Source: Laetmonice hystrix
Lineage: Eukaryota
Direction: 5' to 3'
Length of the DNA: 64,000 nt
Assembly: GCA_965235115.1 (NCBI GenBank)
Contig: OZ249436.1
Span: forward strand, 21,950,001-22,014,000
Of the stretch, positions 24,132 to 55,365 are shown in pieces (position 1 is the stretch's first letter; every line of letters begins with the position of its first letter). The notes under the pieces were generated by a model. The model worked only from the letters and a program-made list of their open reading frames with translations, made no database searches and was not told the origin of the DNA. Position numbers and translations under genes: made by a program.

Positions 24132-24194
24132 AACTCACGTTTCTCCTCATTCCACGTATAAATCTTTCGCCTTTTACTAAAGATTTCCGTGGGG
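24132..24194 (+). pseudogene. U5 snRNA 5' part (nt ~1-63, upstream region intact), interrupted by Tx1 copy D
   Basis: AACTCACG...GCCTTTTACTAAAGATTTCCGTGGGG then Tx1 5'UTR; remainder of the gene at 30074-30148. Confidence 0.95.
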
Positions 24195-24635
24195 ATTTGG
24201 AGAATACGGAGAATTTGGGTTCATTTGGATCGATCAGTTGTTAGCTTTTGGTGGTTTTCTCCTTTTGGAGTCGTAGGTTGGTCAGTTGCCTTGAAACTAC
24301 CCTTGGGACCGGGTCATAATAGGTCCTTGGTTTCGTTTCTAGGCTGACCTTTCATACTGTCCGCGGGACCCGGAATATAATAGGTCCTTTTCTATTTGCA
24401 TCCGTGGGGACCCGGATTAAAATAGGTCTCTCGTTCGCTTGGGTATCTGGTGGTAGCTTCCAGCCCAACGTGATAATTCTTTATGTTAATCCGTAGAGGT
24501 CCGGAATAAAATAGGCCTCCTTTTCCTTTCCTTCTCTCTTCTTTCACCGTGTAAATGGTCTTAGTTGCCGTCACGGTGTAAGCCAACCTCTCCCCTTTTC
24601 AGTTAATTTTGTTTTCCGCCTGCCACCCCGGTGGC

Positions 24636-26222
24636 ATGGCGACAGGCATGGAATTTGATTCGGACGACACGGATTTGGCCCTGGTTATAGACGATAATAT
24701 GGCTTCAACAACTTCTCCTCTACCTGTTGCGAGGAGCAGTCAGGTGGCAGAAACGTCGGGCGTACAATCTGGAGGCATCTCCAAAGAGTTAGCCCATCAT
24801 AGTTTTCAGAGGGATTTGATCTTGTCCTCTGATGAGGACGGATGGTCGGTCCAGAAAAAGAAAACAAAAGGTGGTTGGAAGGTGGGAGGGAAAGTTTTCC
24901 CTACGTCGAAGCCAGATGGCGCGGCACCCCCATCCAAGACCGTTAAATTGAATTCAGGGCGCTCAAAGCCAGTAAAAGTATCGAGAGTAGGGCAAGACCC
25001 TGTCTTCCTGAAAAAACCCTTCTCAATTGAGGAGCAAAAGGTAAGGGCTGAAAGCCTCATTGAGAGAAGTGCGGTTTTTAAGTTTGTTGACCGGGGTAGC
25101 CCCATCTTGCGGGATGATTTTGCGGAGCCCTTGTCGGCACTGATCGATCTGAAGGAAGTTTTGTTTTTGGCCAGTATAGGTCGGGGTGACGAGTGGCACG
25201 TTACCCTGACAAATACTGCAGCGAAGGCAGCCCTCTTAACGAGTGATGGGTTTTGTGTGGGGGGACGTAGGTGCTACGTCAAAGAGGATGACACGCTTAA
25301 GGGTCGAGGAGGGACTTTCTGCTACCCGGTAGTGCGTGTACATTGGAATAGTCCTTCTTTACCTTTGAATGTCGTGCCAGATATCCTGGGGGTCCATGGT
25401 GACATAATATCTGATGTCTTTGAAGAGTCGTCATCATCGCGATTCCCAGGGGTGTTAACTGGGGTCCGCAAACTAGTGTTTAAAATCCCTACTAAAGATA
25501 GGAGAGCCTTTTTGGAGGATCTCCCACATTTGCTTCACCCTGAGTTTGATGGGGTGAAGTTTCGCTTGTTGGTGGTGGTCAACGGCCGGAAACCTTTGTG
25601 TTTGAGGTGCCAAAAGATGGGCCATCAATCCAAAAAATGCCTCGAGACTGAGTTCTGTTCGTTTTGTCGTCTCTATGGCCATAGTACGGGGGTGTGTCCT
25701 AGGAAGGGTTCCTATGCGGCAAAGCTCTTAAGTGTCCCTCAGCAAGAGGCAGATCCTGTCCCGCCGGAAGTACCGGTGGTGGAGGACGAGACGCCGCAAG
25801 GTGCAGCGGAGGGTGGTCAACAGGCTGAGCCTGTTGAGGTCCCACAGGGAGGTGATGGTGGAGAGGAGTCCACTCCTATCGATTTGTCTAGCGAATCCAT
25901 GGGACGGAAGTCTGAGCATCCCGTGCAAAAACATCAGGCCCCTATTAAAGTTTCCGAGGGCGACGTGGAGCCCCCCCAACCCATTGTAGAGGGCGACGTA
26001 CCTCAGAAACTCGAGCCGGCCCCTCAGCGGGCAAGTAGGAGATCGGATAGAGGGAAACGCTCTCATGTTCCCCAGGGAGCCGTAGCGGGAGCCTTGGCAG
26101 GGCTTGCTCCTAGAGAGACCTCAGCTCCGCCAACTCTGAGGGCGAAGCTAGAACCCCATCTTGGGCCCAAGAGTCTTTTGGGGGCAGAAGGGCTTAAAGA
26201 GGGCTCTTTCCAGCCTCCCTGA
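24636..26222 (+). CDS. ORF1, gag-like nucleic-acid-binding protein, 528 aa from first ATG
   Basis: CLRCQKMGHQSKKC and CSFCRLYGHSTGVC (CX2CX4HX4C x2), LTGVRKL motif, basic N-terminal and acidic/Pro-rich C-terminal regions. Confidence 0.92.
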   Translation: MATGMEFDSDDTDLALVIDDNMASTTSPLPVARSSQVAETSGVQSGGISKELAHHSFQRDLILSSDEDGWSVQKKKTKGGWKVGGKVFPTSKPDGAAPPSKTVKLNSGRSKPVKVSRVGQDPVFLKKPFSIEEQKVRAESLIERSAVFKFVDRGSPILRDDFAEPLSALIDLKEVLFLASIGRGDEWHVTLTNTAAKAALLTSDGFCVGGRRCYVKEDDTLKGRGGTFCYPVVRVHWNSPSLPLNVVPDILGVHGDIISDVFEESSSSRFPGVLTGVRKLVFKIPTKDRRAFLEDLPHLLHPEFDGVKFRLLVVVNGRKPLCLRCQKMGHQSKKCLETEFCSFCRLYGHSTGVCPRKGSYAAKLLSVPQQEADPVPPEVPVVEDETPQGAAEGGQQAEPVEVPQGGDGGEESTPIDLSSESMGRKSEHPVQKHQAPIKVSEGDVEPPQPIVEGDVPQKLEPAPQRASRRSDRGKRSHVPQGAVAGALAGLAPRETSAPPTLRAKLEPHLGPKSLLGAEGLKEGSFQPP

Positions 26223-26320
26223 GTTTATCCATTTCTTAGGTCTTATCGCACATTTTAGTTAAAATACCTTTTGAATCAATTATTTGCATTTCCAACGCCT
26301 GACAAATTACAAATTACCTG

Positions 26321-29300
26321 ATGGCGAAGTCGTTCAAAATCACTTCACTGAACTGTAAAGGGTTACAGAATCCTATAAAGTGTGATCTTTTGGGCAGTTA
26401 TCTAGCCACTAGATCTTTTGATGTCCTGTTCCTACAAGAGACACATGTGGGTGGGGCAGAGGATCAGGATCGTGTGGAGTCTGCCTGCGGTGGATCCGGT
26501 GTTTTTAGCTTTGGCCAGTCAGATAGTTCCGGAGTGGCGGTGATTTTTAGACGAGGCCTTGAGTATGACATTAAATCGTCTAGATGCGATGACAGTGGCA
26601 GGGTCACTTCAGTAGTGGCGGAAATAAATGGCCAGGTTTTTAATTTTATCAATATATACGCTCCAAATATTGCTGTCCAGAGGAAAGCTTTTATTTCAGG
26701 CTTGGCTGACTTTGTCATGTTTGAAGGAGCTGTAATTTTGGCTGGAGATTTTAACTTTATAGAGGATGTCTTCATGGATAAGAAAGGTGGGAACCCAAAG
26801 AGAGGTCTGGGGGGCAAAGTGGAAATGGAGGCCCTGGCCGGCAGATTTAATTTATTGGATGTCTTCAGACATAAAAACCCGTCGAGAAAGGAATTCTCCT
26901 TTTCTGGGGCAGGAGTAGCCACCAGGCTTGACCGGTTTTATGTTACCAAGGATTTAGTCGAGAATGTTGAGAATGTTGGGTATGTTCCCTGTTCGTATTC
27001 TGATCATAAGATAGTTGACATGCAGCTATCTTGGAAGAGTATATCTGAGGACTTTCGTCATTCAGGTCTTTGGAAATGTAATGTAACGGTTTTAAAGGAT
27101 ATTGATTTTGTGCGAGACATGGAAATGGAGTGGCAGGTTTTAAGCCAGTCCAAAGTCAAAGATATGGTTTGGTGGGAAGACTGTAAAGTCCGTTTTAAAT
27201 CTTTAATAATTAAACATTCCAAGCGGTTGGCTCGACAACGTAGACAACATGTTTTGCAGCTTGAGAAGTCGATTCTTTTCTTTCAAGCATTGGCTGATGG
27301 GGGCTTGGAGGATTTGGAATGTGTAGTAGATGGTCTTAAACTGGACTTGGAGCATTTGTTAGAAGAAAAACTGAAAGGGGCTAGGATAAGATCTCGTGTT
27401 CAACACGTGGAGAATGACGAAAAGCCTTCCCGTTTTTTCCTGAAGCAGGAGAAAATGAATGGAAGCGCGAAGGTTATTTCCGAACTAGAGGTTGAAGGTC
27501 GAGTCATAACTGATAAAATGGACATAGTGGCAGCTTGTCGTAACTTTTATAAATGTCTGTATACGAAGGAAGACATTGATCGAGAGGTAGCACAGAAATA
27601 CCTGGATCGTCTTCCTCGGTTGGCCTCTGAAGGTAGAGCAGAGTGCGAGGGGTTTTTAAGTAAGGAGGAAGTATTTTCTTCCCTAAAGTCCATGAAGGAT
27701 GGGAAAAGTCCGGGTGAGGACGGCCTCCCCCAGGAATTTTATGTTGGATTTTTTCATCTGTTTGGTGGTGATTTAGTCAATGTTTTTAATCAAGCCTTTC
27801 ACGCAGGCGTCTTAGGCGAGTCCCTTAGGACAGGAGTCATTAGATTGATCTGTAAAGATGTAACAAAAAAAGAGAATTTAGGTTACTGGAGGCCTATTTC
27901 TCTTCTTAACACCGATTATAAACTTATTTCAAAGTCCATTTGTAATAGAATGGTCAAGGTGTTGGATGAAATAGTACATGAAGATCAGACGTGTGCCATT
28001 AAGGGAAGGACTATACATGATAGTTTACACTTAATTCGATCTGTCATTGACTATGCCAATGACCATGATATACCGTGTGGGATTTTGAGTCTAGATCAGG
28101 AAAAGGCCTTTGATAGGGTTTCTCACGAGTTCCTTTTCATGGCTCTACGAAGTTATGGTTTTGGCCCCGATTTGATTAGATGGGTCCGCCTTTTGTATAC
28201 GGACATTAGTTCAAGGGTGTTTGTCAATGGTATACTGTCAAATGAGTTTGAAGTCCAACGTTCGGTGAGACAAGGTTGTGGTCTGTCTCCCCTTTTATAT
28301 GTTTTAGTTATCGAACCACTTGCAGTTATGATGAGAGCTGACTTCCGTATGGAAGGGCTCAAAATCCCTGGCTCACCAAGGACGGTTCAACTTGTGCACT
28401 ATGCCGACGACATGAACCCAGTTGTTACATCGGAGAGAGCAGTGAGAGTCGCTCTGGAAATTGTTAATGAGTTTGGGCGGGCATCTGGGGCCAAGCTTAA
28501 CAGACGCAAGTCAAAAGGCATGTGGGTTGGGAAGTGGAGGCACCGAAAGGGTGTTTTGCATGGTATTGATTTTAGTTGCGAAAGTTTAAAGTGTCTGGGA
28601 GTAGTTTTTGGTAGACACCAAAGTGAGTGGCAAAAATTGAATTGGGAACCGCTGGTCGAGAAATTGGCTAAAGTATTGGAAGGCTGGAAAGTTCGTAAAA
28701 TGACGCTAGCAGGCAGAGCAGTTATTCTGAACACGGTGGCCTTATCCAAATTGTGGCACCGTGGACAAGTCATTCATATGAATGATAAGTACATTAAGAA
28801 GTTCGAGCGTATTATCTACAAGTTTCTTTGGCCTGGTGGGGCGGAGAGGGTCCAACGAAGAGTCATGGTTCTGGATAGAGTCAGGGGAGGTGTTGGCCTC
28901 GTCGACCTTGGCTCGAAGTTGGAATCATTTCGAATTAGCCATATTGGCAAGTTATTGAGAAGCCAGCTAGCCCAGAAATGGTCCGAGTTTGCTGTTTTTT
29001 ATTGTGGTTTTCAGTTGAGGGCAGAAAGGCCCGAGTTTGGGAGTAATTCTAGACCTCATGCTTGGAACATTTCTCTCTTTTACGAAAGGTGTCTTCGGGA
29101 ATGGAAGAAGTTTAATGAAAGTCAGAATGTCTCTTTGCAGAGCCTTACAAGTGGCGACATTTACAAAGTGTTGACCAAGAAATGGGTCATTGTGCCACTG
29201 GTTGCAACCAAGTCTGTGAACATTTTTGTTGATTTTAGTGTTTGTTGGAATGACTGTTGCCACTGGTTCCTCCCGTCGGAAATCAAAGAATTTGCCTGGC

Positions 29301-29788
29301 GGGTAGGGCAACATATACTCCCTGTTAATGACAAACTTCACAGGCATAACAAACGTTTACCTGTAAAGTGTGAACTATGTGGGGCGGGCAGGGAAACTTT
29401 AGATCACATTTTATTGTTGTGTCCAGTTGTACGTCCGGTTGCAAGGGAAGTGGAGGTCTTGATCTCAGAGATCTTGGATGCTCCATTTTTCCTGGACAGA
29501 GAAGTAATTTTATTCAATATTTTACCTCGGATGAGGGATCAGACACGGGGTCTGGTGTTGCTTCTCTTGAATTGTTTTAAGAGGGAGGTCTGGCATCATC
29601 GTAATAGGGTTAAGTTGGGCTTGGCCAGACCTAACCCTGAAAGAGTGTGGTCGGCCCTGATGGCAGGGCTCAAGTGGAGGTTTTCTATTGATGTGTGTCG
29701 CCCTCAAAATACTAAATGGGTAGAAGCATGGGCAGTTGGAAAGGTTTGTGCGGGAAAAGTGGGTGAGGAATTTGTCTTCCTCTTGTAG
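26321..29788 (+). CDS. ORF2 APE-RT, 1155 aa (intact)
   Basis: All APE, RT and CCHC motifs present. Confidence 0.97.
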   Translation: MAKSFKITSLNCKGLQNPIKCDLLGSYLATRSFDVLFLQETHVGGAEDQDRVESACGGSGVFSFGQSDSSGVAVIFRRGLEYDIKSSRCDDSGRVTSVVAEINGQVFNFINIYAPNIAVQRKAFISGLADFVMFEGAVILAGDFNFIEDVFMDKKGGNPKRGLGGKVEMEALAGRFNLLDVFRHKNPSRKEFSFSGAGVATRLDRFYVTKDLVENVENVGYVPCSYSDHKIVDMQLSWKSISEDFRHSGLWKCNVTVLKDIDFVRDMEMEWQVLSQSKVKDMVWWEDCKVRFKSLIIKHSKRLARQRRQHVLQLEKSILFFQALADGGLEDLECVVDGLKLDLEHLLEEKLKGARIRSRVQHVENDEKPSRFFLKQEKMNGSAKVISELEVEGRVITDKMDIVAACRNFYKCLYTKEDIDREVAQKYLDRLPRLASEGRAECEGFLSKEEVFSSLKSMKDGKSPGEDGLPQEFYVGFFHLFGGDLVNVFNQAFHAGVLGESLRTGVIRLICKDVTKKENLGYWRPISLLNTDYKLISKSICNRMVKVLDEIVHEDQTCAIKGRTIHDSLHLIRSVIDYANDHDIPCGILSLDQEKAFDRVSHEFLFMALRSYGFGPDLIRWVRLLYTDISSRVFVNGILSNEFEVQRSVRQGCGLSPLLYVLVIEPLAVMMRADFRMEGLKIPGSPRTVQLVHYADDMNPVVTSERAVRVALEIVNEFGRASGAKLNRRKSKGMWVGKWRHRKGVLHGIDFSCESLKCLGVVFGRHQSEWQKLNWEPLVEKLAKVLEGWKVRKMTLAGRAVILNTVALSKLWHRGQVIHMNDKYIKKFERIIYKFLWPGGAERVQRRVMVLDRVRGGVGLVDLGSKLESFRISHIGKLLRSQLAQKWSEFAVFYCGFQLRAERPEFGSNSRPHAWNISLFYERCLREWKKFNESQNVSLQSLTSGDIYKVLTKKWVIVPLVATKSVNIFVDFSVCWNDCCHWFLPSEIKEFAWRVGQHILPVNDKLHRHNKRLPVKCELCGAGRETLDHILLLCPVVRPVAREVEVLISEILDAPFFLDREVILFNILPRMRDQTRGLVLLLLNCFKREVWHHRNRVKLGLARPNPERVWSALMAGLKWRFSIDVCRPQNTKWVEAWAVGKVCAGKVGEEFVFLL

Positions 29789-30073
29789 AATAGTTCACCC
29801 CCCCTTTTTTTAAAGGATATGGTCGGTGCATATTGAAGGATTGTTGAAATGGTGGAGTATTCCTTGAGTGTGCAGGTTTTAATGTTTGAGTGTTGCCACT
29901 TGGGAGTTTTTAACTAGTCAACTCTAGCCTTTTTTTCAATTTTCCTTTTGTACTTAGTTTGCTCTTTACTATATTGTCTGGCATGTAGACTTTAGGGTCT
30001 GGTGCCAGGGTTATCGTTAAGAGTACGTATTGGTTTTTAGAGTCTTTTATAATGAGAAAAAAAAAAAAAAAAA

Positions 30074-30148
30074 AAAGATTTCCGTGGGGAGGAACATTAC
30101 AATGAGTCTATAGACGAATTTTTGCATCCCTGCTCTAAGAGCGGGGTA
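30074..30148 (+). pseudogene. U5 snRNA 3' half (variant a)
   Basis: Continuation of the gene broken at 24194. Confidence 0.93.
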
Positions 30149-30231
30149 AATGAATAATGAAGAATAGTCTCCTAACGCAAACTGATTCAGACGAAGAATG
30201 TTGTTTATGAATAGGCCTAATTGGGATGGAA

Positions 30232-30822
30232 AATTTTATTCAATATTTTACCTCGGATGAGGGATCAGACACAAGGTCTAGTGTTACTTCTCTTAAATTG
30301 TTTTAAGAGGGAGGTCTGGCATCATCGTAATAGGGTTAAGTTGGGCTTGGCCAGACCTAACCCTGAGAGAGTGTGGTCGGCCCTGATGGCAGGGCTCAAG
30401 TGGAGGTTTTCTATTGATGTGTGTCGCCCTCAAAATACAAAATGGGTAGAAGCATGGGCAGTTGGAAAGGTTTGTGCGGGAAAAGTGGGTGAGGAATTTG
30501 TCTTCCTCTTGTAGAATAGTTCACCCCCCTTTTTTTTAAAGGATATGGTCGGTGCATATTGAAGGATTGTTGAAATGGTTAAGTATTCCTTGAGTGTGCA
30601 GGTTTTAATGTTTGAGTGTTGCCACTTGGGAGTTTTTAACTAGTCAGCTCTAGCCTTTTTCAATCTTCCTTTTGTACTTAGTTTGCTCTTTACTATATTG
30701 TCCGGCATGTAGGCTTTAGGGTCTGGTGCCAGGGTTATCGTTAAGAGTAGTTATTGGTTTTTAGAGTCTTTTATAAATAAAAAAAAATAAAAATAAAAAA
30801 TAAAAAAAAAATAAAAAAAAAA
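30232..30822 (+). mobile_element. 5'-truncated Tx1-like copy E (same 5' junction as copy B)
   Basis: GGGATGGAA-AAT-TTTATTCAAT junction identical to 14757; tail is (A)n interrupted by T. Confidence 0.93.
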
Positions 30823-31280
30823 GATTTCCGTGGGGATTTGGAGAATACGGAGAATTTGGGTTGATTTGGATCGATCAGTTGTTAGCTTTTGGTGGTTTTC
30901 TCCTTTTGGAGTCGTAGGTTGGTCAGTTGCCTTGAAACTACCCTTGGGACCGGGTCATAATAGGTCCTTGGTTTCGTTTCTAGGCTGACCTTTCATACTG
31001 TCCGCGGGACCCGGAATATAATAGGTCCTTTTCTATTTGCATCCGTGGGGACCCGGATTAAAATAGGTCTCTCGTTCGCTTGGGTATCTGGTGGTAGCTT
31101 CCAGCCCAACGTGATAATTCTTTATGTTAATCCGTAGAGGTCCGGAATCAAATAGGCCTCCTTTTCCTTCCCTTCTCTCTTCTTTCACCGTGTAAATGGT
31201 CTTAGTTGCCGTCACGACCGGTGTAAGCCAACCTCTCCCCTTTTCAGTTAATTTTGTTTTCCGCCTGCCACTCCGGTGGC

Positions 31281-32868
31281 ATGGCGACAGGCATGGAATA
31301 TGATTCTGACGACACGGATTTGGCCCTGGTTATAGACGATAATATGGCTTCAACAACTTCTCCTCTACCTGTTGCGAGGAGCAGTCAGGTGGCAGAAACG
31401 TCGGGCGTACAATCTGGAGGCATCTCCAAAGAGTTAGCCCATCATAGTTTTCAGAGGGATTTGATCTTGTCCTCTGATGAGGACGGATGGTCGGTCCAGA
31501 AAAAGAAAACAAAAGGTGGTCGGAAGGTGGGAGGGAAAGTTTTCCCTACGTCGAAGCCAGATGGCGCGGCACCCCCATCCAAGACCGTTAAATTGAATTC
31601 AGGGCGCTCAAAGCCAGTAAAAGTATCGAGAGTAGGGCAAGACCCTGTCTTCCTGAAAAAAACCCTTCTCAATTGAGGAGCAAAGGGTAAGGGCTGAAAG
31701 CCTCATTGAGAGAAGTGCGGTTTTTAAGTTTGTTGACCGGGGTAGCCCCATCTTGCGGGATGATTTTGCGGAGCCCTTGTCGGCACTGATCGATCTGAAG
31801 GAAGTTTTGTTTTTGGCCAGTATAGGTCGGGGTGACGAGTGGCACGTTACCCTGACAAATACTGCAGCGAAGGCAGCCCTCTTAACGAGTGATGGGTTTT
31901 GTGTGGGGGGACGTAGGTGCTACGTCAAAGAGGATGACACGCTTAAGGGTCGAGGAGGGACTTTCTGCTACCCGGTAGTGCGTGTACATTGGAATAGTCC
32001 TTCTTTACCTTTGAATGTCGTGCCAGATATCCTGGGGGTCCATGGTGACATAATATCTGATGTCTTTGAAGAGTCGTCATCATCGCGATTCCCAGGGGTG
32101 TTAACTGGGGTCCGCAAACTAGTGTTTAAAATCCCTACTAAAGATAGGAGAGCCTTTTTGGAGGATCTCCCACATTTGCTTCACCCTGAGTTTGATGGGG
32201 TGAAGTTTCGTTTGTTGGTGGTGGTCAACGGCCGGAAACCTTTGTGTTTGAGGTGCCAGAAGATGGGCCATCAATCCAAAAAATGCCTCGAGACTGAGTA
32301 CTGTTCGTTTTGTCGTCTCTATGGCCATAGTACGGGGGTGTGTCCTAGGAAGGGTTCCTATGCGGCAAAGCTCTTAAGTGTCCCTCAGCAAGAGGCAGAT
32401 CCTGTCCCGCCGGAAGTACCGGTGGTGGAGGACGAGACGCCGCAAGATGCAGCGGAGGGTGGTCAACAGGCTAAGCCTGTTGAGGTCCCACAGGGAGGTG
32501 ATGGTGGAGAGGAGTCCACTCCTATCGATTTGTCTAGCGAATCCATGGGACGGAAGTCTGAGCATCCCGTGCAAAAACATCAGGCCCCTATTAAAGTTTC
32601 CGAGGGCGACGTGGAACCCCCCCAACCCATTGTAGAGGGCGACGTACCTCAGAAACTCGAGCCGGCCCCTCAGCGGGCAAGTAGGAGATCGGATAGAGGG
32701 AAACGCTCTCATGTTCCCCAGGGAGCCGTAGCGGGAGCCTTGGCAGGGCTTGCTCCTAGAGAGACCTCAGCTCCGCCAACTCTGAGGGCGAAGCTAGAAC
32801 CCCATCTTGGGCCCAAGAGTCTTTTGGGGGCAGAAGGGCTTAAAGAGGGCTCTTTCCAGCCTCCCTGA
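31281..32868 (+). pseudogene. ORF1 with +1 frameshift in the A-run near 31660
   Basis: Split into the 31254-31676 and 31753-32868 ORFs; same run that is shifted in copy C. Confidence 0.88.
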
Positions 32869-32966
32869 GTTTATCCATTTCTTAGGTCTTATCGCACATT
32901 TTAGTTAAAATACCTTTTGAATCAATTATTTGCATTTCCAACGCCTGACAAATTACAAATTACCTG

Positions 32967-35900
32967 ATGGCGAAGTCGTTCAAAATCACTTCACTGAACT
33001 GTAAAGGGTTACAGAATCCTATAAAGTGTGATCTTTTGGGCAGTTATCTGGCCACTAGATCTTTTGATGTCCTGTTCCTACAAGAGACACATGTGGGTGG
33101 GGCAGAGGATCAGGATCGTGTGGAGTCTGCCTGCGGTGGATCCGGTGTTTTTAGCTTTGGCCAGTCAGATAGTTCCGGAGTGGCGGTGATTTTTAGACGA
33201 GGCCTTGAGTATGACATTAAATCGTCTAGATGCGATGACAGTGGCAGGGTCACTTCAGTAGTGGCGGAAATAAATGGCCAGGTTTTTAATTTTATCAATA
33301 TATACGCTCCAAATATTGCTGTCCAGAGGAAAGCTTTTATTTCAGGCTTGGCTGACTTTGTCATGTTTGAAAGAGCTGTAATTTTGGCTGGAGATTTTAA
33401 CTTTATAGAGGATGTCTTCATGGATAAGAAAGGTGGGCACCCAAAGAGAGGTCTGGGGGGCAAAGTGGAAATGGAGGCCCTGGCCGGCAGATTTAATTTA
33501 TTGGATGTCTTCAGACATAAAAACCCGTCGAGAAAGGAATTCTCCTTTTCTGGGGCAGGAGTAGCCACCAGGCTTGACCGGTTTTATGTTACCAAGGATT
33601 TAGTCGAGAATGTTGAGAATGTTGGGTATGTTCCCTGTTCGTATTCTGATCATAAGATAGTTGACATGCAGCTATCTTGGAAGAGTATATCTGAGGACTT
33701 TCGTCATTCAGGTCTTTGGAAATGTAACGTAACGGTTTTAAAGGATATTGATTTTGTGCGAGACATGGAAATGGAGTGGCAGGTTTTAAGCCAGTCCAAA
33801 GTCAAAGATATGGTTTGGGAAGACTGTAAAGTCCGTTTTAAATCTTTAATAATTAAACATTCCAAGCGGTTGGCTCGACAACGTAGACAACATGTTTTGC
33901 AGCTTGAGAAGTCGATTCTTTTCTTTCAAGCATTGGCTGATGGGGGCTTGGAGGATTTGGAAGGTGTAGTAGATGGTCTTAAACTGGACTTGGAGCATTT
34001 GTTAGAAGAAAAACTGAAAGGGGCTAGGATAAGATCTCGTGTCCAACACGTGGAGAATGACGAAAAGCCTTCCCGTTTTTTCCTGAAGCAGGAGAAAATG
34101 AATGGAAGCGCGAAGGTTATTTCCGAACTAGAGGTTGAAGGTCGAGTCATAACTGATAAAATGGACATAGTGGCAGCTTGTCGTAACTTTTATAAATGTC
34201 TGTATACGAAGGAAGACATTGATCGAGAGGTAGCACAGAAATACCTGGATTGTCTTCCTCGGTTGGCCTCTGAAGGTAGAGCAGAGTGCGAGGGGTTTTT
34301 AAGTAAGGAGGAAGTATTTTCTTCCCTAAAGTCCATGAAGGATGGGAAAAGTCCGGGTGAGGACGGCCTCCCCCAGGAATTTTATGTTGGATTTTTTCAT
34401 CTGTTTGGTGGTGATTTAGTCAATGTTTTTAATCAAGCCTTTCACGCAGGCGTCTTAGGCGAGTCCCTTAGGACAGGAGTCATTAGATTGATCTGTAAAG
34501 ATGTAACAAAAAAAGAGAATTTAGGTTACTGGAGGCCTATTTCTCTTCTTAACACCGATTATAAACTTATTTCAAAGTCCATTTGTAATAGAATGGTCAA
34601 GGTGTTGGATGAAATAGTACATGAAGATCAGACGTGTGCCATTAAGGGAAGGACTATACATGATAGTTTACACTTAATTCGATCTGTCATTGACTATGCC
34701 AATGACCATGATATACCGTGTGGGATTTTGAGTCTAGATCAGGAAAAGGCCTTTGATAGGGTTTCTCACGAGTTCCTTTTCATGGCTCTACGAAGTTATG
34801 GTTTTGGCCCCGATTTGATTAGATGGGTCCGCCTTTTGTATACGGACATTAGTTCAAGGGTGTTTGTCAATGGTATACTGTCAAATGAGTTTGAAGTCCA
34901 ACGTTCGGTGAGACAAGGTTGTGGTCTGTCTCCCCTTTTATATGTTTTAGTTATCGAACCACTTGCAGTCATGATGAGAGCTGACTTCCGTATGGAAGGG
35001 CTCAAAATCCCTGGCTCACCAAGGACGGTTCAACTTGTGCACTATGCCGACGACATGAACCCAGTTGTTACATCGGAGAGAGCAGTGAGAGTCGCTCTGG
35101 AAATTGTTAATGAGTTTGGGCGGGCATCTGGGGCCAAGCTTAACAGACGCAAGTCAAAAGGCATGTGGGTTGGGAAGTGGAGGCACCGAAAGGGTGTTTT
35201 GCATGGTATTGATTTTAGTTGCGAAAGTTTAAAGTGTCTGGGAGTAGTTTTTGGTAGACACCAAAGTGAGTGGCAAAAATTGAATTGGGAACCGCTGGTC
35301 GAGAAATTGGCTAAAGTATTGGAAGGCTGGAAAGTTCGTAAAATGACGCTAGCAGGCAGAGCAGTTATTCTGAACACGGTGGCCTTATCCAAATTGTGGC
35401 ACCGTGGACAAGTCATTCACATGAACGACAAGTATATTAAGAAGTTCGAACGTATAATTTTTAAGTTTCTTTGGCCAGGCCAGGAGAGGGTCCAACGGAG
35501 AGTCATGGTTCTGGATAGAGTAAGAGGAGGTGTTGGTCTGGTAGACCTCGGCTCGAAGTTGGAAGCCTTCCGAATTAACCACATTGGCAAGTTATTGAGG
35601 AGCCAACTAATCCAGAAATGGTCCGAGTTTGCTGTTTTTTATTGTGGCTTTCAGTTGAGAACAGAAAGACCAGAGTTTGGGGTTAATTCTAGACCCCATG
35701 CTTGGAACATTTCCCCATTTTACGAAAGGTGTCTTAGGGAATGGAAGAATTTTAAAGGAAATCGGAATGTTTCTTTGGAGAGCCTTACAAGTGGTAACAT
35801 TTATAAAGAGTTGACTAAGAAATGGGTCATTGTGCCACTGGTTGCAACCAAGTCTGTGAACATTTTTGTTGATTTTAGTGTTTGTTGGAATAACTGTTGC

Positions 35901-42600: not shown

Positions 42601-44439
42601 AAGATTGGCCGGACCCCAAAACAAGCAAGTATAAACCAACTACTAAAGAGAATCAAACAAAAGGTATTAAGAGACTATCATCTGCCACAAACCAAAAGGG
42701 AGATTGCAAAGGAACAGGCAAGCTGTCCAGACTTTAAAGACATTCACTTATACCTAGATGAGGGCCTATTACCAAACACGAAGAAAGCAGCAAAGAAAGT
42801 GCTACTAGAAGCAGAAAACTATGTGTTAATAGATAGAGTCTTGTTCAGATTCACGCAGAAACCGAACACAGAAGAAATCAGAGTAAATCTAGCTGTTCCA
42901 AGATCAATGGTGAGCGAGATCATCTCAATGCACCATGACTCACTGCTAGCGTGCCATCAAGGTATCAACCGAGTAGCACTGACCATCAAGAAAAAGTACT
43001 ACTTCCCATTGCTGTATCAAAGAATCACTGACTACGTCAAAGCTTGTCACACCTGTCAAACAAGAAAACACCCCATAAACGCCGACAGACCGTTCGAGGT
43101 GAACATCCCAACGGAATACGCACCAATGGAAACAGTTTACTGTGACCTGAAAGTAATGCCGGAATCACATAGCAGACACCGCTACATATTAGTCCTAGTA
43201 TGCGCGGTCACCCGATATACAATTCTAGTACCACTACAAAGCAAGGACGCGCCATCAGTCGCTGAAGCGATCCTACAAAAATGCATTCTTATACATGGGC
43301 CGTTCAAGAGGTTCATTTGCGACGAGGGAAGAGAGTTCAACAACCAAGTCATCGCATACGTGTTCAACGCTCTAAAGGTTGACCAAAGATTTGTGTCTGT
43401 GGGAAACCACAAGTCAAACAAGTCTGAACGTTATGTGGGAACAGTATCAAGCTTCTTGACCTCCTGTCTTACTGGAAACGGGAAGAACTGGCACTTGTTC
43501 TGCAATGCCGTAGCATTTGCTATGAACTCTTTCGCCAGCCCATCATTAAGTGGATACAGTCCCTATTACTTGGTTTATCTAAGGAACCCACCATCTGCGT
43601 TCGAATGCGGACCAGCAGATGCGATCAGCAGAAATTACGTAGACTATGTGGAGTCAATGAAGGAGAGACTGCAGAAGGTTTCAAAGACAGTTTTGGACTT
43701 ACATGCCAGGAACCAAACAAAACAAGCGCAAACGCAATTGAAGAAAGTGAAAAACCCACCAATATTCACAGAAGGTATGCTTATCTATCTGCTGTCACCG
43801 TCGCATAGCGCCTTACAGACAAACTCTAAGAAAATCCGAATGGATTTCATTGGACCACTATCAATCAAATCCATGCTTGACCGCAACCACGCTATTCTGC
43901 AAACACTCGAGGGCCAACAGATAAATGGAGTATTTCATGTGGCCAGACTGAAAGTCGCGTGGATCAGAACAGAAACTGGAACAGTCAACCATGTCAACGA
44001 ATTGAAACCCATTCTAAAGAAACCCACCATACAGGTAACTAACGAGCAAGGGGAAAAGGTCACCAACATGCCACAAAACGCCTTAAACTTTACAATTCAA
44101 GGGGAGCCAGTGAACATCAACTTACAGGTACAACACGCAGAAGCCAATGGCAGATTGGCAGCACCTACCAAACTTAAGGACAGGACGAAGGCAACGATTT
44201 TCAGAATGACAGAACAAATATCAAAGGAATCTATGGAACTGGAGATCAAGAAAGCAAGGTATAAAGACGGAGCCCTACAACTACTGTTGAGGTCGCCAAG
44301 TGAGGAATATCACAACTTTTGGATGCGCACAGCGGACCATCCTTATGTACTGCCATGGGCAAAAGCGTTGGATAACGACCCAGATCTGAGGATAACCGGA
44401 TCTAGGAAAAGGTTTGCTCATCGGTTTTACGCATTTTAG
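39559..44439 (+). CDS. pol: Pol polyprotein (protease, RT, RNase H, integrase), probably translated as Gag-Pol
   Basis: LFDSGASH (PR); LDLKEAY, LPMGL, IMDDL (RT); YTDTS, ELEL, TDH (RH); HH..H..CHTC, YCDL, CDEGREF, SER (IN). Confidence 0.95.
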   Translation, partial: LEGRQPEDASLSVSKDTIKSTTTHNSPHPLQKTTPTRLPTNSNSETDNAHSLEVRTNTLTDDETTTVLKVHEQSTTFDPNEDASLVHVNSAQNQNNNETICLELNPRNMTSAKLPNRETITILFDSGASHTLICANTINESRYLSELPKRQCKQMRFKVGNGEYLTTDHAIDVTINIQDHKFLVTALVVNTLGGISMVLGSPSMGEIDAKLEFRTHRLKFKSSSILLKPSCDTILQPHQTRSITIQGKLPHFLRNSNILIKATKFLENLSSKLMLVQFRNSTAAIVVRNPSNTPIRIRRDKPVATVEPRAMTNMYTAVSHAEITSASTTVHYYACTARSERPTPEPIKDKTGQDGEPLERDTLYEYKKQKYPFLEDTDDRLKMFDEEIINRDIKFEHCVLDMEGKMKVRTMLNKYKNALSLHSEVGQTDMTVDFQLNDTKPFYIRPFTVPATEKPIIDKELNKLVKMGILQEGHSQYSSPVMLLRKKDTKTYRLVTDFRHLNQRIVKRNLPFPLIKDTLQIIGHSQAQILSVLDLKEAYHCLNLSERCRQYTGIASYFGGKTYFYKKLPMGLNISPAEFQTRINRILDEIQEGNQFCIGIMDDLIIYSKGTKDHYQHVETILAVLQKYGLKISPAKAKLFRERVTYMGHEIIIHNKQPCIRALMERTEAIQKLPIPTTKRKLKGFIGKVSYLSMYLPHLQILLQPLHSIATKKADFVWDQIAQDNYDKIIKLLQESPILTMPRSQGLFRLYTDTSKIGVGASLWQVQGGSERLIAYYSKALPKAASNYGITELELTGLTIAVTAFRHLVKGTHFECYTDHAAIPRIMKSKAEPTSDRIKRLLEKLSGYCIKVGYKKGSSLVIADYLSRNPPPVDDTNQEDTIAFPITRSMARRNNIAMPPIPPADISPENKARKSVRNNTPTPTANKATTERVTQQQEPIVNNDMTLLFPRYNTREQAQTHRLVDTQTPLKHIPIEAQTPETSETEIFETHTSPPDHFYRQPTQLISNLSDQNIKIGRTPKQASINQLLKRIKQKVLRDYHLPQTKREIAKEQASCPDFKDIHLYLDEGLLPNTKKAAKKVLLEAENYVLIDRVLFRFTQKPNTEEIRVNLAVPRSMVSEIISMHHDSLLACHQGINRVALTIKKKYYFPLLYQRITDYVKACHTCQTRKHPINADRPFEVNIPTEYAPMETVYCDLKVMPESHSRHRYILVLVCAVTRYTILVPLQSKDAPSVAEAILQKCILIHGPFKRFICDEGREFNNQVIAYVFNALKVDQRFVSVGNHKSNKSERYVGTVSSFLTSCLTGNGKNWHLFCNAVAFAMNSFASPSLSGYSPYYLVYLRNPPSAFECGPADAISRNYVDYVESMKERLQKVSKTVLDLHARNQTKQAQTQLKKVKNPPIFTEGMLIYLLSPSHSALQTNSKKIRMDFIGPLSIKSMLDRNHAILQTLEGQQINGVFHVARLKVAWIRTETGTVNHVNELKPILKKPTIQVTNEQGEKVTNMPQNALNFTIQGEPVNINLQVQHAEANGRLAAPTKLKDRTKATIFRMTEQISKESMELEIKKARYKDGALQLLLRSPSEEYHNFWMRTADHPYVLPWAKALDNDPDLRITGSRKRFAHRFYAF

Positions 44440-46743
44440 GCGTTATGTATAAATGTTTCTAGGATATAAAGTAGCTAATGCATATGCGGAGTTAGTTTAA
44501 TGATGATAACACATGTATTGCGTAGTAGGTACCACAACCACTAACGCAGCCAGCCACTACTAGGCCGGGATGACAATAACACAGTTAACGTGATATCAGT
44601 TTCACGACGTCATCTCAAGAATACCTAGGCACGATTCTCAAACTCATTACTTCGATCACTCGCGCTCCGTGGTGGGAGCACATTTGGCGTACACACGCTT
44701 AATTACACAGCAGCTATCAACCCGTCTAGACTTCAAAATGATAAGTCTCAGTTGCTGTGGGATTGTGCGTAACTTCATTATTATGTATAACCATCAAGTG
44801 GGTAAGACTATTGTGCCTCACTGAACAACACTTCAGTGCACCCCAGGGTTATCAAACTATCGAGAATCGCTGCACAATGCAATGTAACAAAGCTGGCTAA
44901 TGCTTTTCATGTTGAACCGAGTCATATTTACAGAGATTCGCATCGTGGGTATGAGGTAACCATATCCGAGATAAAACGCACGAATACGCAGGACACACAC
45001 TGCCAAAACGTTGCCATATCGGCAACACTTAAAGCCGCCAGCGTTATCGACATCACATGTCCGATGGCGCACACCTATGCCACAGACGCACAATGGACGT
45101 TAAGTAGCGTCAGGTAACACCCTGATGGTTGATTACCCCACTAAATGATAGTATATGTCATGTGCAGAACAATGTATCAGTTAGTTTAGTGTACATACTA
45201 TATCAGCAGACGAAATAGGGAGACTTACGTTTCCTAGTTATGTCAGACTGCCACTATGCTCGTACGGGAAGTTCAAAAGATTGATCCGACGAACGAAAGT
45301 GGTGAAAGTCATTCTAGTATCAGGGGAGAACTGGGTCGAAGTCTCGAGTCACTCGGAATTTACCGATACCAGCGGGATTTTCCAACCGGTTCCCCGAACT
45401 CAGAGATTCGAACCCAAACAGAACACAGGGGAGACAATCCAGATAGCACTAAGTGGACCCAGCAGTCCGATAGAAGATTCAGGAAGTGAGAGTTGCCACA
45501 CTGCAATGGAAAGGCAGGATATTTATTAGGCAACATATAAAGTATGACAAAGTAAAACTAAAAATGCAGGAGTACCCTAGTTCGTAGATTCAAAACTGTT
45601 TGTGAGCCGAGCAACACCGTAGATAGAACTATACTTAGCAAATTTTAAGGTAATTATAGATACATATATATATATATATATATAACCTCTAAATGTTCCA
45701 CACAGTTAAGTTGTTTCTGCAGGCATTAACCGCTCTCAGCCATCTGGTGTTCATATTGTTTGCATGTATCAATGCTTTGTGGTCTGAGTCTAAATGCAGA
45801 GACAAGCGAAAAACAGAAGCAGAAGACAGTCACTGAACAAAAGATCCTGAAGCCGGAAGGAGAAGACAGAAATGAAAATTAAACAAGCTGAGAATGACAC
45901 CGCAGAACCGCTCACCGAAGCAGCAGTTCAGCGCAAACCCACAAGAAGTTTGTAACGCTGTAACGAACGCAACGGTGGAAACAAAAACCATCATCGAAGA
46001 TCAAGCGCAACCTGATGGACTTCCTGGCTAACGACAGACAGCAACGAAGGCCAAGTCCATCAGCATAAACATACACCAAACGCCATCCCCAGATGCATCC
46101 CTTGGTGTATGTCGGAAACACCAAACGCACCTACCAGAAACACCGACCAAGAAGGCCACAGTTGAGGGCGCAGCAACGCAAGCCGTAAAACTACAGCAAG
46201 TACCGAGGTTAATAACACCCTCCAAACGTGCCATCAACGATAAAGAGGGTGCTGCAAGTGTGTGAAACGTCTTTACTTTGCGGACATCGCAGTCAACATT
46301 TTATTAAGATGCACCAAAATAATCAGTGCGAATGGATGAAAAGTCATCCCGTGGTAGAGGTCGCAAGTAACACTTCTCGATAATAACGACCACTCTCAGA
46401 GACTGTTTCACGATCAAGTCCAGTCACCAGGGATCGTCCATAGATGGATGACAGAGTGATGTAAAACGGTGGACCTCAAACCCGAACTATAAGTGACTCA
46501 TAAACTCCAAACCTTGAGTGACTCTTGCCAGCAGACGTTTTGCCAATTATCGCAATCACATTTTAAGTGACTTTATCAATTAGAGTTCGGATTTATGCTC
46601 AATTATATTTACGATCATAATGCTAAACCAAGAGCATGTGGTATATTTAATCAACCGATGGACTGATGATAAAAATTTAAGAGTTCACAAATTCCTTTTA
46701 GGAAATAATTCACTATCATAAATTTTTCTTGAAACCAAGAGCA

Positions 46744-47246
46744 TGTGGTATATTTATCTGAACTTTACACAACAGACTATACTTACCAACCAGATAACAT
46801 GGACATGCCTGGACACTGTTATCAGACCTTTGTTCTCAGTCATGGTTAGAGATAACCACACTATCAAAGGAACAAGTCCAAACACACATACCACTGTCAT
46901 GTAATCGAGCTCTTGTGTAATGAAGCATAATCATTACATCTAAGGAAAGATAGAACACCTCCCGCAGTAATGTAAGCACACCATGTCAGCTCCAATCTTT
47001 CATGACCACATACGTTTCCTTATGCAAACAAATAAGTATCATGCACCCTCCTCCACTACAGAGAGGACCCATTTGTAATCACCTGACTAATGATAAGCAT
47101 TTTAGTATATATAGTACAACAATGTAATAGAAAGAGAGAGAGAGAGATAGACAGAGACGAGAACGCACGACGCGACTGTCTATCGTGACGAATAAAACCT
47201 CAGCACACAACAAGTCTGTCTTCCCTTCCATGTTCACAACATAACA
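46744..47246 (+). repeat. 3' LTR (503 bp)
   Basis: By eye identical to the 5' LTR except for one extra AG in the (AG)n tract. Confidence 0.96.
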
Positions 47247-48898
47247 GTTACATCGGAGAGAGCAGTGAGAGTTGCTCTGGAAATTGTTAATGAGTTTGGG
47301 CGGGCATCTGGGGCCAAGCTTAACAGACGCAAGTCAAAAGGCATGTGGGTTGGGAAGTGGAGGCACCGAAAGGGTGTTTTGCATGGTATTGATTTTAGTT
47401 GCGAAAGTTTAAAGTGTCTGGGAGTAGTTTTTGGTAGACACCAAAGTGAGTGGCAAAAATTGAATTGGGAACCGCTGGTCGAGAAATTGGCTAAAGTATT
47501 GGAAGGCTGGAAAGTTCGTAAAATGACGCTAGCAGGCAGAGCAGTTATTCTGAACACGGTGGCCTTATCCAAATTGTGGCACCGTGGACAAGTCATTCAT
47601 ATGAATGATAAGTACATTAAGAAGTTCGAGCGTATTATCTACAAGTTTCTTTGGCCTGGTGGGGCGGAGAGGGTCCAACGAAGAGTCATGGTTCTGGATA
47701 GAGTCAGGGGAGGTGTTGGCCTCGTCGACCTTGGCTCGAAGTTGGAATCATTTCGAATTAGCCATATTGGCAAGTTATTGAGAAGCCAGCTAGCCCAGAA
47801 ATGGTCCGAGTTTGCTGTTTTTTATTGTGGTTTTCAGTTGAGGGCAGAAAGGCCCGAGTTTGGGAGTAATTCTAGACCTCATGCTTGGAACATTTCTCTC
47901 TTTTACGAAAGGTGTCTTCGGGAATGGAAGAAGTTTAATGAAAGTCAGAATGTCTCTTTGCAGAGCCTTACAAGTGGCGACATTTACAAAGTGTTGACCA
48001 AGAAATGGGTCATTGTGCCACTGGTTGCAACCAAGTCTGTGAACATTTTTGTTGATTTTAGTGTTTGTTGGAATAACTGTTGCCACTGGTTCCTCCCGTC
48101 GGAAATCAAAGAATTTGCCTGGCGGGTAGGGCAACATATACTCCCTGTTAATGACAAACTTCATAGGGACAACAAACGTTTACCTGTAAAGTGTGAACTA
48201 TGTGGGGCGGGCAGGGAAACTTTAGATCACATTTTATTGCTGTGTCCGGTTGTACGTCCGGTTGCAAGGGAAGTGGAGGTCTTGATCTCAGAGATCTTGG
48301 ATGCTCCATTTTTCCTGGACAGAGAAGTAATTTTATTCAATATTTTACCTCGGATGAGGGATCAGACACAAGGTCTAGTGTTACTTCTCTTAAATTGTTT
48401 TAAGAGGGAGGTCTGGCATCATCGTAATAGGGTTAAGTTGGGCTTGGCCAGACCTAACCCTGAGAGAGTGTGGTCGGCCCTGATGGCAGGGCTCAAGTGG
48501 AGGTTTTCCATTGATGTGTGTCGCCCTCAAAATACAAAATGGGTAGAAGCATGGGCAGTTGGAAAGGTTTGTGCGGGAAAAGTGGGTGAGGAATTTGTCT
48601 TTCTCTTGTAGAATAGTTCACCCCCCCCCTTTTTTTAAAGGATATGGTCGGTGCATATTGAAGGATTGTTGAAATGGTGGAGTATTCCTTGAGTGTGCAG
48701 GTTTTAATGTTTGAGTGTTGCCACTTGGGAGTTTCTAACTAGTCAACTCTAGCCTTTTTCAATTTTCCTTTTGTACTTAGTTTGCTCTTTACTATATTGT
48801 CCGGCATGTAGGCTTTACGGTCTGGTGCCAGGGTTATCGTTAAGAGTAGTTATTGGTTTTTAGAGTCTTTTATAAATTTAAAAAAAAAAAAAAAAAAA

Positions 48899-48949
48899 AA
48901 AGATTTCCGTGGGGAGGAACATTACAATGAGTCTATAGACGAATTTTTG
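48899..48949 (+). pseudogene. 51-bp U5 fragment ending at the Sm site
   Basis: Same as 36705-36755. Confidence 0.9.
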
Positions 48950-48952
48950 ATT

Positions 48953-51564
48953 TGAAGCAGGAGAAAATGAATGGAAGCGCGAAGGTTATTTCCGAACTAG
49001 AGGTTGAAGGTCGAGTCATAACTGATAAAATGGACATAGTGGCAGCTTGTCGTAACTTTTATAAATGTCTGTATACGAAGGAAGACATTGATCGAGAGGT
49101 AGCACAGAAATACCTGGATCGTCTTCCTCGGTTGGCCTCTGAAGGTAGAGCAGAGTGCGAGGGGTTTTTAAGTAAGGAGGAAGTATTTTCTTCCCTAAAG
49201 TCCATGAAGGATGGGAAAAGTCCGGGTGAGGACGGCCTCCCCCAGGAATTTTATGTTGGATTTTTTCATCTGTTTGGTGGTGATTTAGTCAATGTTTTTA
49301 ATCAAGCCTTTCACGCAGGCGTCTTAGGCGAGTCCCTTAGGACAGGAGTCATTAGATTGATCTGTAAAGATGTAACAAAAAAAGAGAATTTAGGTTACTG
49401 GAGGCCTATTTCTCTTCTTAACACCGATTATAAACTTATTTCAAAGTCCATTTGTAATAGAATGGTCAAGGTGTTGGATGAAATAGTACATGAAGATCAG
49501 ACGTGTGCCATTAAGGGAAGGACTATACATGATAGTTTACACTTAATTCGATCTGTCATTGACTATGCCAATGACCATGATATACCGTGTGGGATTTTGA
49601 GTCTAGATCAGGAAAAGGCCTTTGATAGGGTTTCTCACGAGTTCCTTTTCATGGCTCTACGAAGTTATGGTTTTGGCCCCGATTTGATTAGATGGGTCCG
49701 CCTTTTGTATACGGACATTAGTTCAAGGGTGTTTGTCAATGGTATACTGTCAAATGAGTTTGAAGTCCAACGTTCGGTGAGACAAGGTTGTGGTCTGTCT
49801 CCCCTTTTATATGTTTTAGTTATCGAACCACTTGCAGTCATGATGAGAGCTGACTTCCGTATGGAAGGGCTCAAAATCCCTGGCTCACCAAGGACGGTTC
49901 AACTTGTGCACTATGCCGACGACATGAACCCAGTTGTTACATCGGAGAGAGCAGTGAGAGTCGCTCTGGAAATTGTTAATGAGTTTGGGCGGGCATCTGG
50001 GGCCAAGCTTAACAGACGCAAGTCAAAAGGCATGTAGGTTGGGAAGTGGAGGCACCAAAAGGGTGTTTTGCATGGTATTGATTTTAGTTGCGAAAGTTTA
50101 AAGTGTCTGGGAGTAGTTTTTGGTAGACACCAAAGTGAGTGGCAAAAATTGAATTGGGAACCGCTGGTCGAGAAATTGGCTAAAGTATTGGAAGGCTGGA
50201 AAGTTCGTAAAATGACGCTAGCAGGCAGAGCAGTTATTCTGAACACGGTGGCCTTATCCAAATTGTGGCACCGTGGACAAGTCATTCATATGAGTGATAA
50301 GTACATTAAGAAGTTCGAGCGTATTATCTACAAGTTTCTTTGGCCTGGTGGGGCGGAGAGGGTCCAACGAAGAGTCATGGTTCTGGATAGAGTCAGGGGA
50401 GGTGTTGGCCTCGTCGACCTTGGCTCGAAGTTGGAATCATTTCGAATTAGCCATATTGGCAAGTTATTGAGAAGCCAGCTAGCCCAGAAATGGTCCGAGT
50501 TTGCTGTTTTTTATTGTGGTTTTCAGTTGAGGGCAGAAAGGCCCGAGTTTGGGAGTAATTCTAGACCTCATGCTTGGAACATTTCTCTCTTTTACGAAAG
50601 GTGTCTTCGGGAATGGAAGAAGTTTAATGAAAGTCAGAATGTCTCTTTGCAGAGCCTTACAAGTGGCGACATTTACAAAGTGTTGACCAAGAAATGGGTC
50701 ATTGTGCCACTGGTTGCAACCAAGTCTGTGAACATTTTTGTTGATTTTAGTGTTTGTTGGAATAACTGTTGCCACTGGTTCCTCCCGTCGGAAATCAAAG
50801 AATTTGCCTGGCGGGTAGGGCAACATATACTCCCTGTTAATGACAAACTTCACAGGCACAACAAACGTTTACCTGTAAAGTGTGAACTATGTGGGGCGGG
50901 CAGGGAAACTTCAGATCACATTTTATTGCTGTGTCCAGTTGTACGTCCGGTTGCAAGGGAAGTGGAGGTCTTGATCTCAGAGATCTTGGATGCTCCATTT
51001 TTCCTGGACAGAGAAGTAATTTTATTCAATATTTTACCTCGGATGAGGGATCAGCACAAGGTCTAGTGTTACTTCTCTTAAATTGTTTTAAGAGGGAGGT
51101 CTGGCATCATCGTAATAGGGTTAAGTTGGGCTTGGCCAGACCTAACCCTGAGAGAGTGTGGTCGGCCCTAATGGCAGGGCTCAAGTGGAGGTTTTCCATT
51201 GATGTGTGTCGCCCTCAAAATACAAAATGGGTAGAAGCATGGGCAGTTGGAAAGGTTTGTGCGGGAAAAGTGGGTGAGGAATTTGTCTTTCTCTTGTAGA
51301 ATAGTTCACCCCCCCCTTTTTTTAAAGGATATGGTCGGTGCATATTGAAGGATTGTTGAAATGGTGGAGTATTCCTTGAGTGTGCAGGTTTTAATGTTTG
51401 AGTGTTGCCACTTGGGAGTTTTTAACTAGTCAACTCTAGCCTTTTTCAATTTTCCTTTTGTACTTAGTTTGCTCTTTACTATATTGTCCGGCATGTAGGC
51501 TTTAGGGTCTGGTGCCAGGGTTATCGTTAAGAGTAGTTATTGGTTTTTAGAGTCTTTTATAAAT

Positions 51565-51598
<34 letters not shown>
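48953..51598 (+). mobile_element. 5'-truncated Tx1-like copy H (same junction as G, no LTR insert)
   Basis: TTTTTG-ATT-TGAAGCAGG junction; TGG>TAG stop at 50035; frameshift near 51055; poly(A). Confidence 0.93.
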
Positions 51599-51600
<2 letters not shown>

Positions 51601-51611
51601 TTTCCGTGGGG

Positions 51612-52100
51612 ATTTGGAGAATACGGAGAATTTGTGTTGATTTGGATCGATCAGTTGTTAGCTTTTGGTGGTTTTCTCCTTTTGGAGTCGTAGGTTGGTC
51701 AGTTGCCTTGAAACTACCCTTGGGACCGGGTCATAATAGGTCCTTGGTTTCGTTTCTAGGCTGACCTTTCATACTGTCCGCGGGACCCGGAATATAATAG
51801 GTCCTTTTCTATTTGCATCCGTGGGGACCCGGATTAAAATAGGTCTCTCGTTCGCTTGGGTATCTGGTGGTAGCTTCCAGCCCAACGTGATAATTCTTTA
51901 TGTTAATCCGTAGAGGTCCGGAATCAAATAGGCCTCCTTTTCCTTTCCTTCTCTCTTCTTTCACCGTGTAAATGGTCTTAGTTGCCGTCACGGTGTAAGC
52001 CAACCTCTCCCCTTTTCAGTTAATTTTGTTTTCCGCCTGCCACCCCGGTGGCATGGCGACAGGCATGGAATATGATTCTGACGACACGGATTTGGCCCTG
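51612..52100 (+). mobile_element. Tx1-like copy I, 5'UTR and first ORF1 codons only (rest deleted)
   Basis: Preceded by AAAGATTTCCGTGGGG; breaks after GATTTGGCCCTG with a short local duplication, then U5 variant-c 3' flank. Confidence 0.88.

Positions 52101-55363: not shown

Positions 55364-55365
<2 letters not shown>

Follow-up and report, generated by a model that had tools for sequence, protein, structure and literature searches.

How can a retrotransposon that inserts at one fixed site come to stand six times, head to tail, in what looks like a single small nuclear RNA (snRNA) gene, and does each insertion renew the target for the next one? These questions are raised by a stack of retroelement copies in the genome of Laetmonice hystrix, located at positions 24131 to 52103 of the window, i.e. 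the whole stretch of 64,000 nucleotides analysed here (contig OZ249436.1, positions 21,950,001 to 22,014,000 of the forward strand). The initial annotation had read the stack as six insertions into one U5 site, the full-length copies having landed behind existing poly(A) tails and the dead genes acting as sinks for new insertions. The structure is real; the history proposed for it is overstated, and a stack as such is an already known kind of structure.

The U5 array and its site-specific retrotransposon

The window corresponds to a tandem array of U5 snRNA genes of an animal, in which Rfam recognises five complete U5 genes (at 6512, 7558, 10530, 11576 and 14551) and a partial one at 24141. 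The array unit of 4018 bp comprises two alleles, U5a and U5b, spaced by 1046 bp and about 2973 bp and distinguished by 13 differing positions within the 161 bp located 3' of the insertion site. The part of the array devoid of insertions (6512..11697, plus strand) carries U5a at 6512 and 10530 and U5b at 7558 and 11576. Over the window, six U5 5' halves are counted versus 13 U5 3' halves.

The invading element is 5.9 kb long and encodes an ORF1 of 528 aa and an ORF2 of 1155 aa, the latter with an APE-type endonuclease, a reverse transcriptase (RT) and a C-terminal zinc-binding zf-RVT domain (PF03372, PF00078 and PF13966, matched in copies C, D and F). ORF1 contains two CCHC knuckle-like motifs that stay below the Pfam cut-offs (E 0.14 and 0.62). 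The 5' UTR (24196-24640) folds better than its shuffled versions (z -3.0), and a short hairpin motif recurs in it about four times. The element carries a poly(A) tail and a target-site duplication (TSD), as members of the Tx1 clade do, and in the window the U5 3' half is found directly behind all 11 element poly(A) ends, in ten cases from the identical U5 base and in the last one, copy J, from 3 nt further on. This site specificity lies far beyond chance, and the preference for a multicopy target, a Tx1-like trait, is likewise displayed by these 11 tails of the window. Judged by its domains, tail, TSD and target, the family appears to be a Tx1-like APE/RT non-LTR retrotransposon.

In databases, the nearest proteins show about 40% identity and bear no family name. 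Among 80 related metagenome loci, 67 of which were scanned with Rfam, many adjoin U1, U2, U4, U5 or 5S genes. A quick RT tree of 80 rows, for which 68 loci were kept, nine dropped for short matches and three as near-duplicates, groups the window family with relatives flanked by small-RNA genes (98 SH-aLRT, 26 rows), in a comparison that contains neither a named Tx1 family nor other clades; the U5 label needs three changes on this tree. U5 pieces occur in five of the 80 loci, none of which has the 3' junction of the window family, and no stack is present in these five, whose contigs are short. Three relatives (L037:6615-6667, L072:6981-7072 and L079:5262-5355) have their ends at U5 some 6, 8 and 19 nt before the site used by the window family; L037 and L072 are placed elsewhere in the tree and L079 is absent from it, which suggests repeated, separate gains of U5 targeting. 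L069, L070, L072, L073 and L074 are copies of one Tx1-like family (97-99.6% identical) with a U4-like 5' end: L074 lies inside a U4 gene, the 3' end of L072 and the 5' end of L069 adjoin U5 genes, and an intact U5 gene precedes L072, so that two snRNA targets may be used by one family.

The window element shares with the snRNA-targeting Tx1 families its two ORFs, APE-RT architecture, poly(A) tail and snRNA-gene target. Keno, of the Tx1 clade, is inserted in U2 instead of U5, and another family is labelled ‘U5 snRNA’ in the legend of Fig. 3 of Kojima 2015 (PMC4494074); this entry, comparable by its figure-legend label only, may bear on the novelty of the window element.

Layout of the stack

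The order of the six same-strand pieces given by the initial annotation is correct, and the lengths of the U5 pieces that separate them, hereafter brackets, are exact (16/161/16/51/51/16 bp). On the plus strand throughout, the stack opens with the 5' half, through loop I, of a U5a-type snRNA gene (24131..24178), located 2975 bp past the previous site, its normal array position. The left copy of a 16-bp TSD (24179..24194) precedes copy D (24195..30076), which is full length with a poly(A) tail and is the sole copy with both ORFs open (ORF1, 24636-26222, 528 aa; ORF2, 26321-29788, APE-RT-zf). A bracket of 161 bp (30074..30234), formed by 74 bp of U5a 3' half and 87 bp of flank and identical to 14599-14759, leads to the 5'-truncated copy E (30235..30822), and a bracket of 16 bp (30820..30835) joins the tail of E to the full-length copy F (30836..36707), which has a small deletion ahead of its tail. 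Between F and G stands a bracket of 51 bp (36705..36755), and an identical one (48899..48949) separates G from H. The 5'-truncated copy G (36756..48901) is split into two parts (36756-37744 and 47247-48901) by a Ty3/gypsy-type LTR retrotransposon (37745..47246) with open gag and pol and a 5-bp TSD, whose presence had been correctly annotated. The LTRs of this nested element are identical at 501 of 501 positions, plus a 2-nt gap, indicating a very young insertion, and the 2.3 kb from pol to the 3' LTR contain no plus-strand frame longer than 114 aa. Copy H (48950..51598), also 5'-truncated, is followed by a 16-bp bracket (51596..51611) and by copy I (51612..52103). The latter had been taken for a full-length copy; it consists of its first 492 bp only, the 3' part being deleted, and is cut at 52103 where it joins a diverged U5 3' flank representing a third flank type. 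The 51-bp brackets contain no diagnostic U5a/U5b base.

A sister segment of the stack occurs upstream (14551..21206, plus strand) and is composed of an intact U5a gene (14551-14672), a 161-bp bracket, copy B (14760-15319), a 15-bp bracket, copy C (15332-21206) and a U5b-type flank. Downstream of the stack, 52104-56500 forms the edge of the array, with the third U5 flank type and decayed copies; in two of the latter, poly(A) lies directly behind the AT-rich spot where B and E start. This edge includes copy J (52696..55506 with its TSD, element 52862-55363, plus strand), from a sister subfamily 89% identical. Farther on, a 2548-bp tandem repeat in about 2.6 copies (56771-63456) contains 465 bp of U5 spacer (5664-6128) in inverted orientation and a minus-strand frame of 263 aa without Pfam match.

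That the stack arose as an assembly artefact is scarcely credible. Its setting is a tandem array of near-identical units, copies A and C with flank showing 3 mismatches in 6575; against this, the copies of the stack differ from each other by 0.4-2.9%, with private indels and different tails, and the LTR element is found in G only, as is a foreign tract in F only. Of the sequence words of 23700-30234, a fraction of 0.82-0.83 is present in three runs, which come from one sample of one study, possibly the source of the assembly, and so are not independent of it; no RNA run is listed for the words of this interval.

Target-site duplications and shared junctions

Copy J is flanked on both sides by a direct repeat of 166 bp (52696-52861 and 55361-55506), whose two copies are identical at 145 of 146 aligned bases, with 20 gap bases, and terminate at the same position. 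Between D and the truncated copy J, codon differences number 156 synonymous versus 71 non-synonymous. J is preceded by the poly(A) of a decayed fragment, the upstream bracket of which is too decayed to be measured and carries no polarity information. Since this repeat is present on both sides, truncated copies do make long TSDs, at least in the case of J, and the premise that the 51- and 161-bp pieces are TSDs gains direct support. Brackets of 15-16 bp stand in front of all four copies with a full-length start, and brackets of 51-166 bp in front of all five truncated copies with a readable junction, which represent three independent events, one of these long duplications being seen on both sides. 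Random deletion ends were considered for the values of 161 and 51 and rejected: three ends would fall within 166 bp of the site, with a rough, after-the-fact chance of 0.0006, and J is a true duplication. Two of the three long duplications, of 161 bp (14599-14759) and 166 bp (52696-52861), are near the nucleosome repeat, a likeness that concerns two values only. Any duplication exceeding 74 bp restores the U5 gene in full, and an intact U5 gene does stand before B. The split between long and short duplications, together with this restoration of the gene, is the best-supported new point of the locus.

Other retrotransposons provide partial parallels. Human L1 produces long TSDs in some cultured cell lines (PMC4245944), and tandem Alu inserts are also described (PMC4245944, PMC3415434). 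Like the U5 element, L1 displays a TSD of about 15 bp with direct joining when full length, microhomology when truncated, and a class above 20 bp; unlike it, L1 is not site-specific and its long duplications rebuild no host gene. Ancestral-type R1 generates a TSD of about 14 bp for full-length and truncated copies alike (PMC2718515), whereas truncated copies of the U5 element are associated with 51-166 bp, of which 166 bp for J. Utopia, occasionally inserted in tandem in U2 arrays, has in Phytophthora an intact U2 gene upstream of its copies, which its authors read as the result of a deletion (PMC4640811). This resembles the intact U5 gene before B, although Utopia has a restriction-like endonuclease and a U2 target, and J shows that at U5 a long duplication can make such a gene.

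The junctions also reveal that six elements do not equal six insertions. E starts at the same base as B, with the same 3-nt microhomology and behind the same 161 bp, and 14599-21254 matches 30074-36755 at 97.9%. G and H share their start base and the same three extra bases, matching neither U5 nor the element. Because the junctions of B and E, and those of G and H, are identical, the stack contains at least two duplications of earlier events (E-F from B-C, and G-H). In both C and F, moreover, an additional A in the same run terminates ORF1 at 131 aa, although this is a homopolymer site where parallel slippage or a base-calling error is possible. A history of six separate insertions into a single U5 site, every one behind the tail of its predecessor and with dead genes as protective sinks, is therefore contradicted, since 5' junctions identical to the base would have to form anew on two occasions, in one of them with three identical extra bases, and is very improbable; all bracket lengths formally fit such a left-to-right growth and the long duplications are real, but the E junction also occurs without D, before an intact gene (at B), and the U5 alleles do not match.

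Mosaicism is likewise apparent among the copies: in a four-gamete test, 10 of the 22 informative pairs of sites are incompatible. A tract of about 400 bp in F (about 35420-35820) differs from J at 9 of 408 positions versus 53 of 408 from C; F keeps its ORF2 open despite this tract of the J subfamily, an exchange between subfamilies 11% apart. The 3' affinities of C and F differ (sites 3448, 5147 and 5778), and the last 560 bp of H are homologous to B and E. G and H show 13 differences in 2610 positions, each of them differs from C at 10-11 of 2605, and their tails are different. A simple origin of G by crossover between F and H is not favoured, G matching H and not F at eight sites up to position 5778 and having neither the tract nor the tail deletion of F. 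Private substitutions (B 0/519, C 8/5414, D 25/5419, E 4/520, F 9/5420, G 6/2176, H 4/2177, I 2/492) were discarded as a guide to copy order, their intervals overlapping for B/C, E/F and H/I.

That G and H differ from each other as much as from C, with different tails, could also fit truncated copies co-transcribed from the U5 promoter, headed by a 51- or 161-nt U5 piece and re-inserted before older copies. G/H and B/E would then be repeat transpositions of U5-headed non-autonomous elements, stacking on the 5' side as in R1. The related family with the U4-like head and the existence of snRNA-headed elements mobilised by Tx1, such as SINEU (PMC4494074), speak for this read-through origin. The frameshift common to C and F points instead to DNA duplication of the whole segment. 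The 161-nt head would moreover span the entire U5 gene together with its 3' flank, a region in which snRNA transcripts usually stop, and we regard this origin as improbable.

Growth of the stack and possible renewal of the target

Whether a full-length copy landed behind an existing poly(A), as initially proposed, can be approached by a simple rule: a copy landing in front of an older one cannot duplicate more U5 than the following bracket holds. The D/E (16 bp before, 161 bp after), F/G (16 and 51 bp) and G/H (51 and 51 bp) junctions comply with it and therefore need no poly(A) target. The B/C, E/F and H/I junctions do not, with 51-161 bp upstream exceeding 15-16 bp downstream; given the long TSD of J, these lengths imply that 5'-side stacking of the R1 type cannot make them. 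R1 in Drosophila 28S rDNA forms TSD-separated head-to-tail stacks followed by unequal exchange (PMC2718515; bioRxiv 10.1101/158386), and similar stacks are described for Utopia in U2 genes (PMC4640811) and for Dada (PMC3706591). The locus resembles R1 in its site-specific APE-type non-LTR element, in head-to-tail copies separated by TSDs, in double insertion followed by unequal exchange and in nested insertions and deletions in the array; it differs in that the sources cited propose for R1 stacks a growth by insertion at the 5' duplication flanking the copy already in place, whereas two junction types are here incompatible with 5'-side growth. In the literature outside subscription papers and Repbase Reports, we found no account of stacks at U5, of a target-specific Tx1 element that stacks on the 3' side, or of long duplications that restore a gene.

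The B/C junction, identical to E/F, and the H/I junction require either re-insertion on the poly(A) side or the collapse of neighbouring U5 genes. The case for insertion behind a poly(A) thus narrows to the junctions that fail the rule of 5' growth, at most two events, B being the same as E. Its only typeable case, B/C, joins two U5 alleles, the bracket before B being U5a at 13/13 diagnostic bases and the flank after C U5b at 12/13, and the 1046-bp spacer between U5a and U5b is absent between the two sides of the segment. With the third flank type at the end of the stack, these alleles also mean that insertion into a single U5 site is not established. Because it joins two alleles, B/C must have undergone recombination or deletion and cannot decide between two routes that give this sequence equally: C may have inserted behind the tail of B and exchanged its 3' part afterwards with a copy located in a U5b gene, or it may have inserted in the neighbouring gene, with subsequent collapse of the two sites across 15 bp. 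H/I could be a recombinant of the B/C junction, given the homology of the end of H to B and E.

Collapse of two neighbouring inserted U5 genes could account for all the junctions between a tail, 15 or 16 bp of U5 and a full-length copy, every first-strand nick being then at a loop I site and none behind a poly(A). The join would be a deletion between short repeats or a U5b-primed insertion connected by its 5' end to a remnant site 1 kb upstream, and the longer brackets would come from crossover in the 51-166 bp. A single step accounts for the U5a type of the bracket before B, the U5b type of the flank behind C and the loss of the 1046-bp spacer, whereas re-insertion at B/C needs one extra crossover, which counts against our preferred explanation. 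The third flank type at the stack end, the recombination demonstrably active in the copies and the ability of R1Bm to recognise its top-strand site without regard to the bottom-strand one (PMC1919474) are also in its favour. It would however need joins within only 15-16 bp, up to twice, though kilobases of homology were available, and re-insertion followed by crossover inside C gives the same product, the 3' affinities of C and F being indeed different. We consider collapse as the sole source of these junctions somewhat unlikely.

Use of a site preceded by poly(A) is compatible with what is described for endonucleases of the APE type, which read only about 8-10 bp (PMC1919474, PMC1950540). Recognition by those of R1Bm and Tx1L extends over about 10 bp spanning the nick (PMC1919474), that of L1 depends on 5 bp at the duplication side together with 3 bp at the opposite side (PMC1950540), and R1 uses off-target sites with 4-9 bp of identity (PMC2718515). 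At U5, three A's of the insertion site merge with the tail, and the nick cannot be placed within them. A site preceded by poly(A) keeps 6/10 bases if the nick falls before the three A's, 8/10 (6/6 of the nearest) if it falls after them and 10/10 at the position suggested by the tail of J. That loop I would be dispensable for targeting, as initially proposed, is thus biochemically plausible, and re-insertion behind poly(A) is reasonable, at about even odds.

From this we infer an order of events, a nick position and re-insertion on the poly(A) side. The explanation that we favour as a whole, with a probability of roughly 0.55, is that target-primed reverse transcription places the element at the 3' edge of loop I in U5 and that the stack combines insertions, DNA duplications and recombination. 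Full-length copies would leave a 15-16-bp duplication, while 5'-truncated ones would join further downstream, often via microhomology, leaving 51-166 bp and, above 74 bp, rebuilding a complete U5 gene before the element. Each insertion would therefore leave two reusable half-sites. Some four or five insertions would have built the stack, along with two or more duplications at the DNA level and several recombinations within the array. D would have hit the intact left site or arrived by crossover in the 161 bp; most simply, it hit a complete U5a gene, because the E junction is also found at B behind an intact gene. E-F would be a copy of the B-C segment, and G-H one insertion, duplicated; the LTR element would have entered G afterwards and a deletion cut I. 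B/C, with E/F as its copy, and H/I would most likely represent one or two true re-insertions behind poly(A), the 3' flank of C being swapped after the event. The role of dead genes as sinks finds no support, D sitting in a complete U5a gene and one or two re-insertions standing against several first hits.

How site-specific retrotransposons survive on snRNA targets of low copy number is a question raised in PMC4640811. We propose, tentatively and as a rather doubtful generalisation, that the element renews its target in two ways, the duplications of truncated copies (50-170 bp) restoring a U5 gene and a fully usable site persisting behind the poly(A), so that stacks grow 3', opposite to R1. 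If this is true, a duplication longer than 74 bp would place a complete U5 gene before the element and the insertion would cost the host nothing, and the endonuclease would read only the three A's and the downstream U5 bases, keeping the site on the poly(A) side usable. A site-specific element could thereby persist on a low-copy snRNA target, and the intact snRNA genes upstream of Utopia copies could be explained. The split between 15-16 and 51-166 bp would also bear on second-strand cutting and joining. With gene-rebuilding long duplications, a site behind the tail that could be used again and the intact copy D at hand, the locus would offer a testable answer to how such elements survive.
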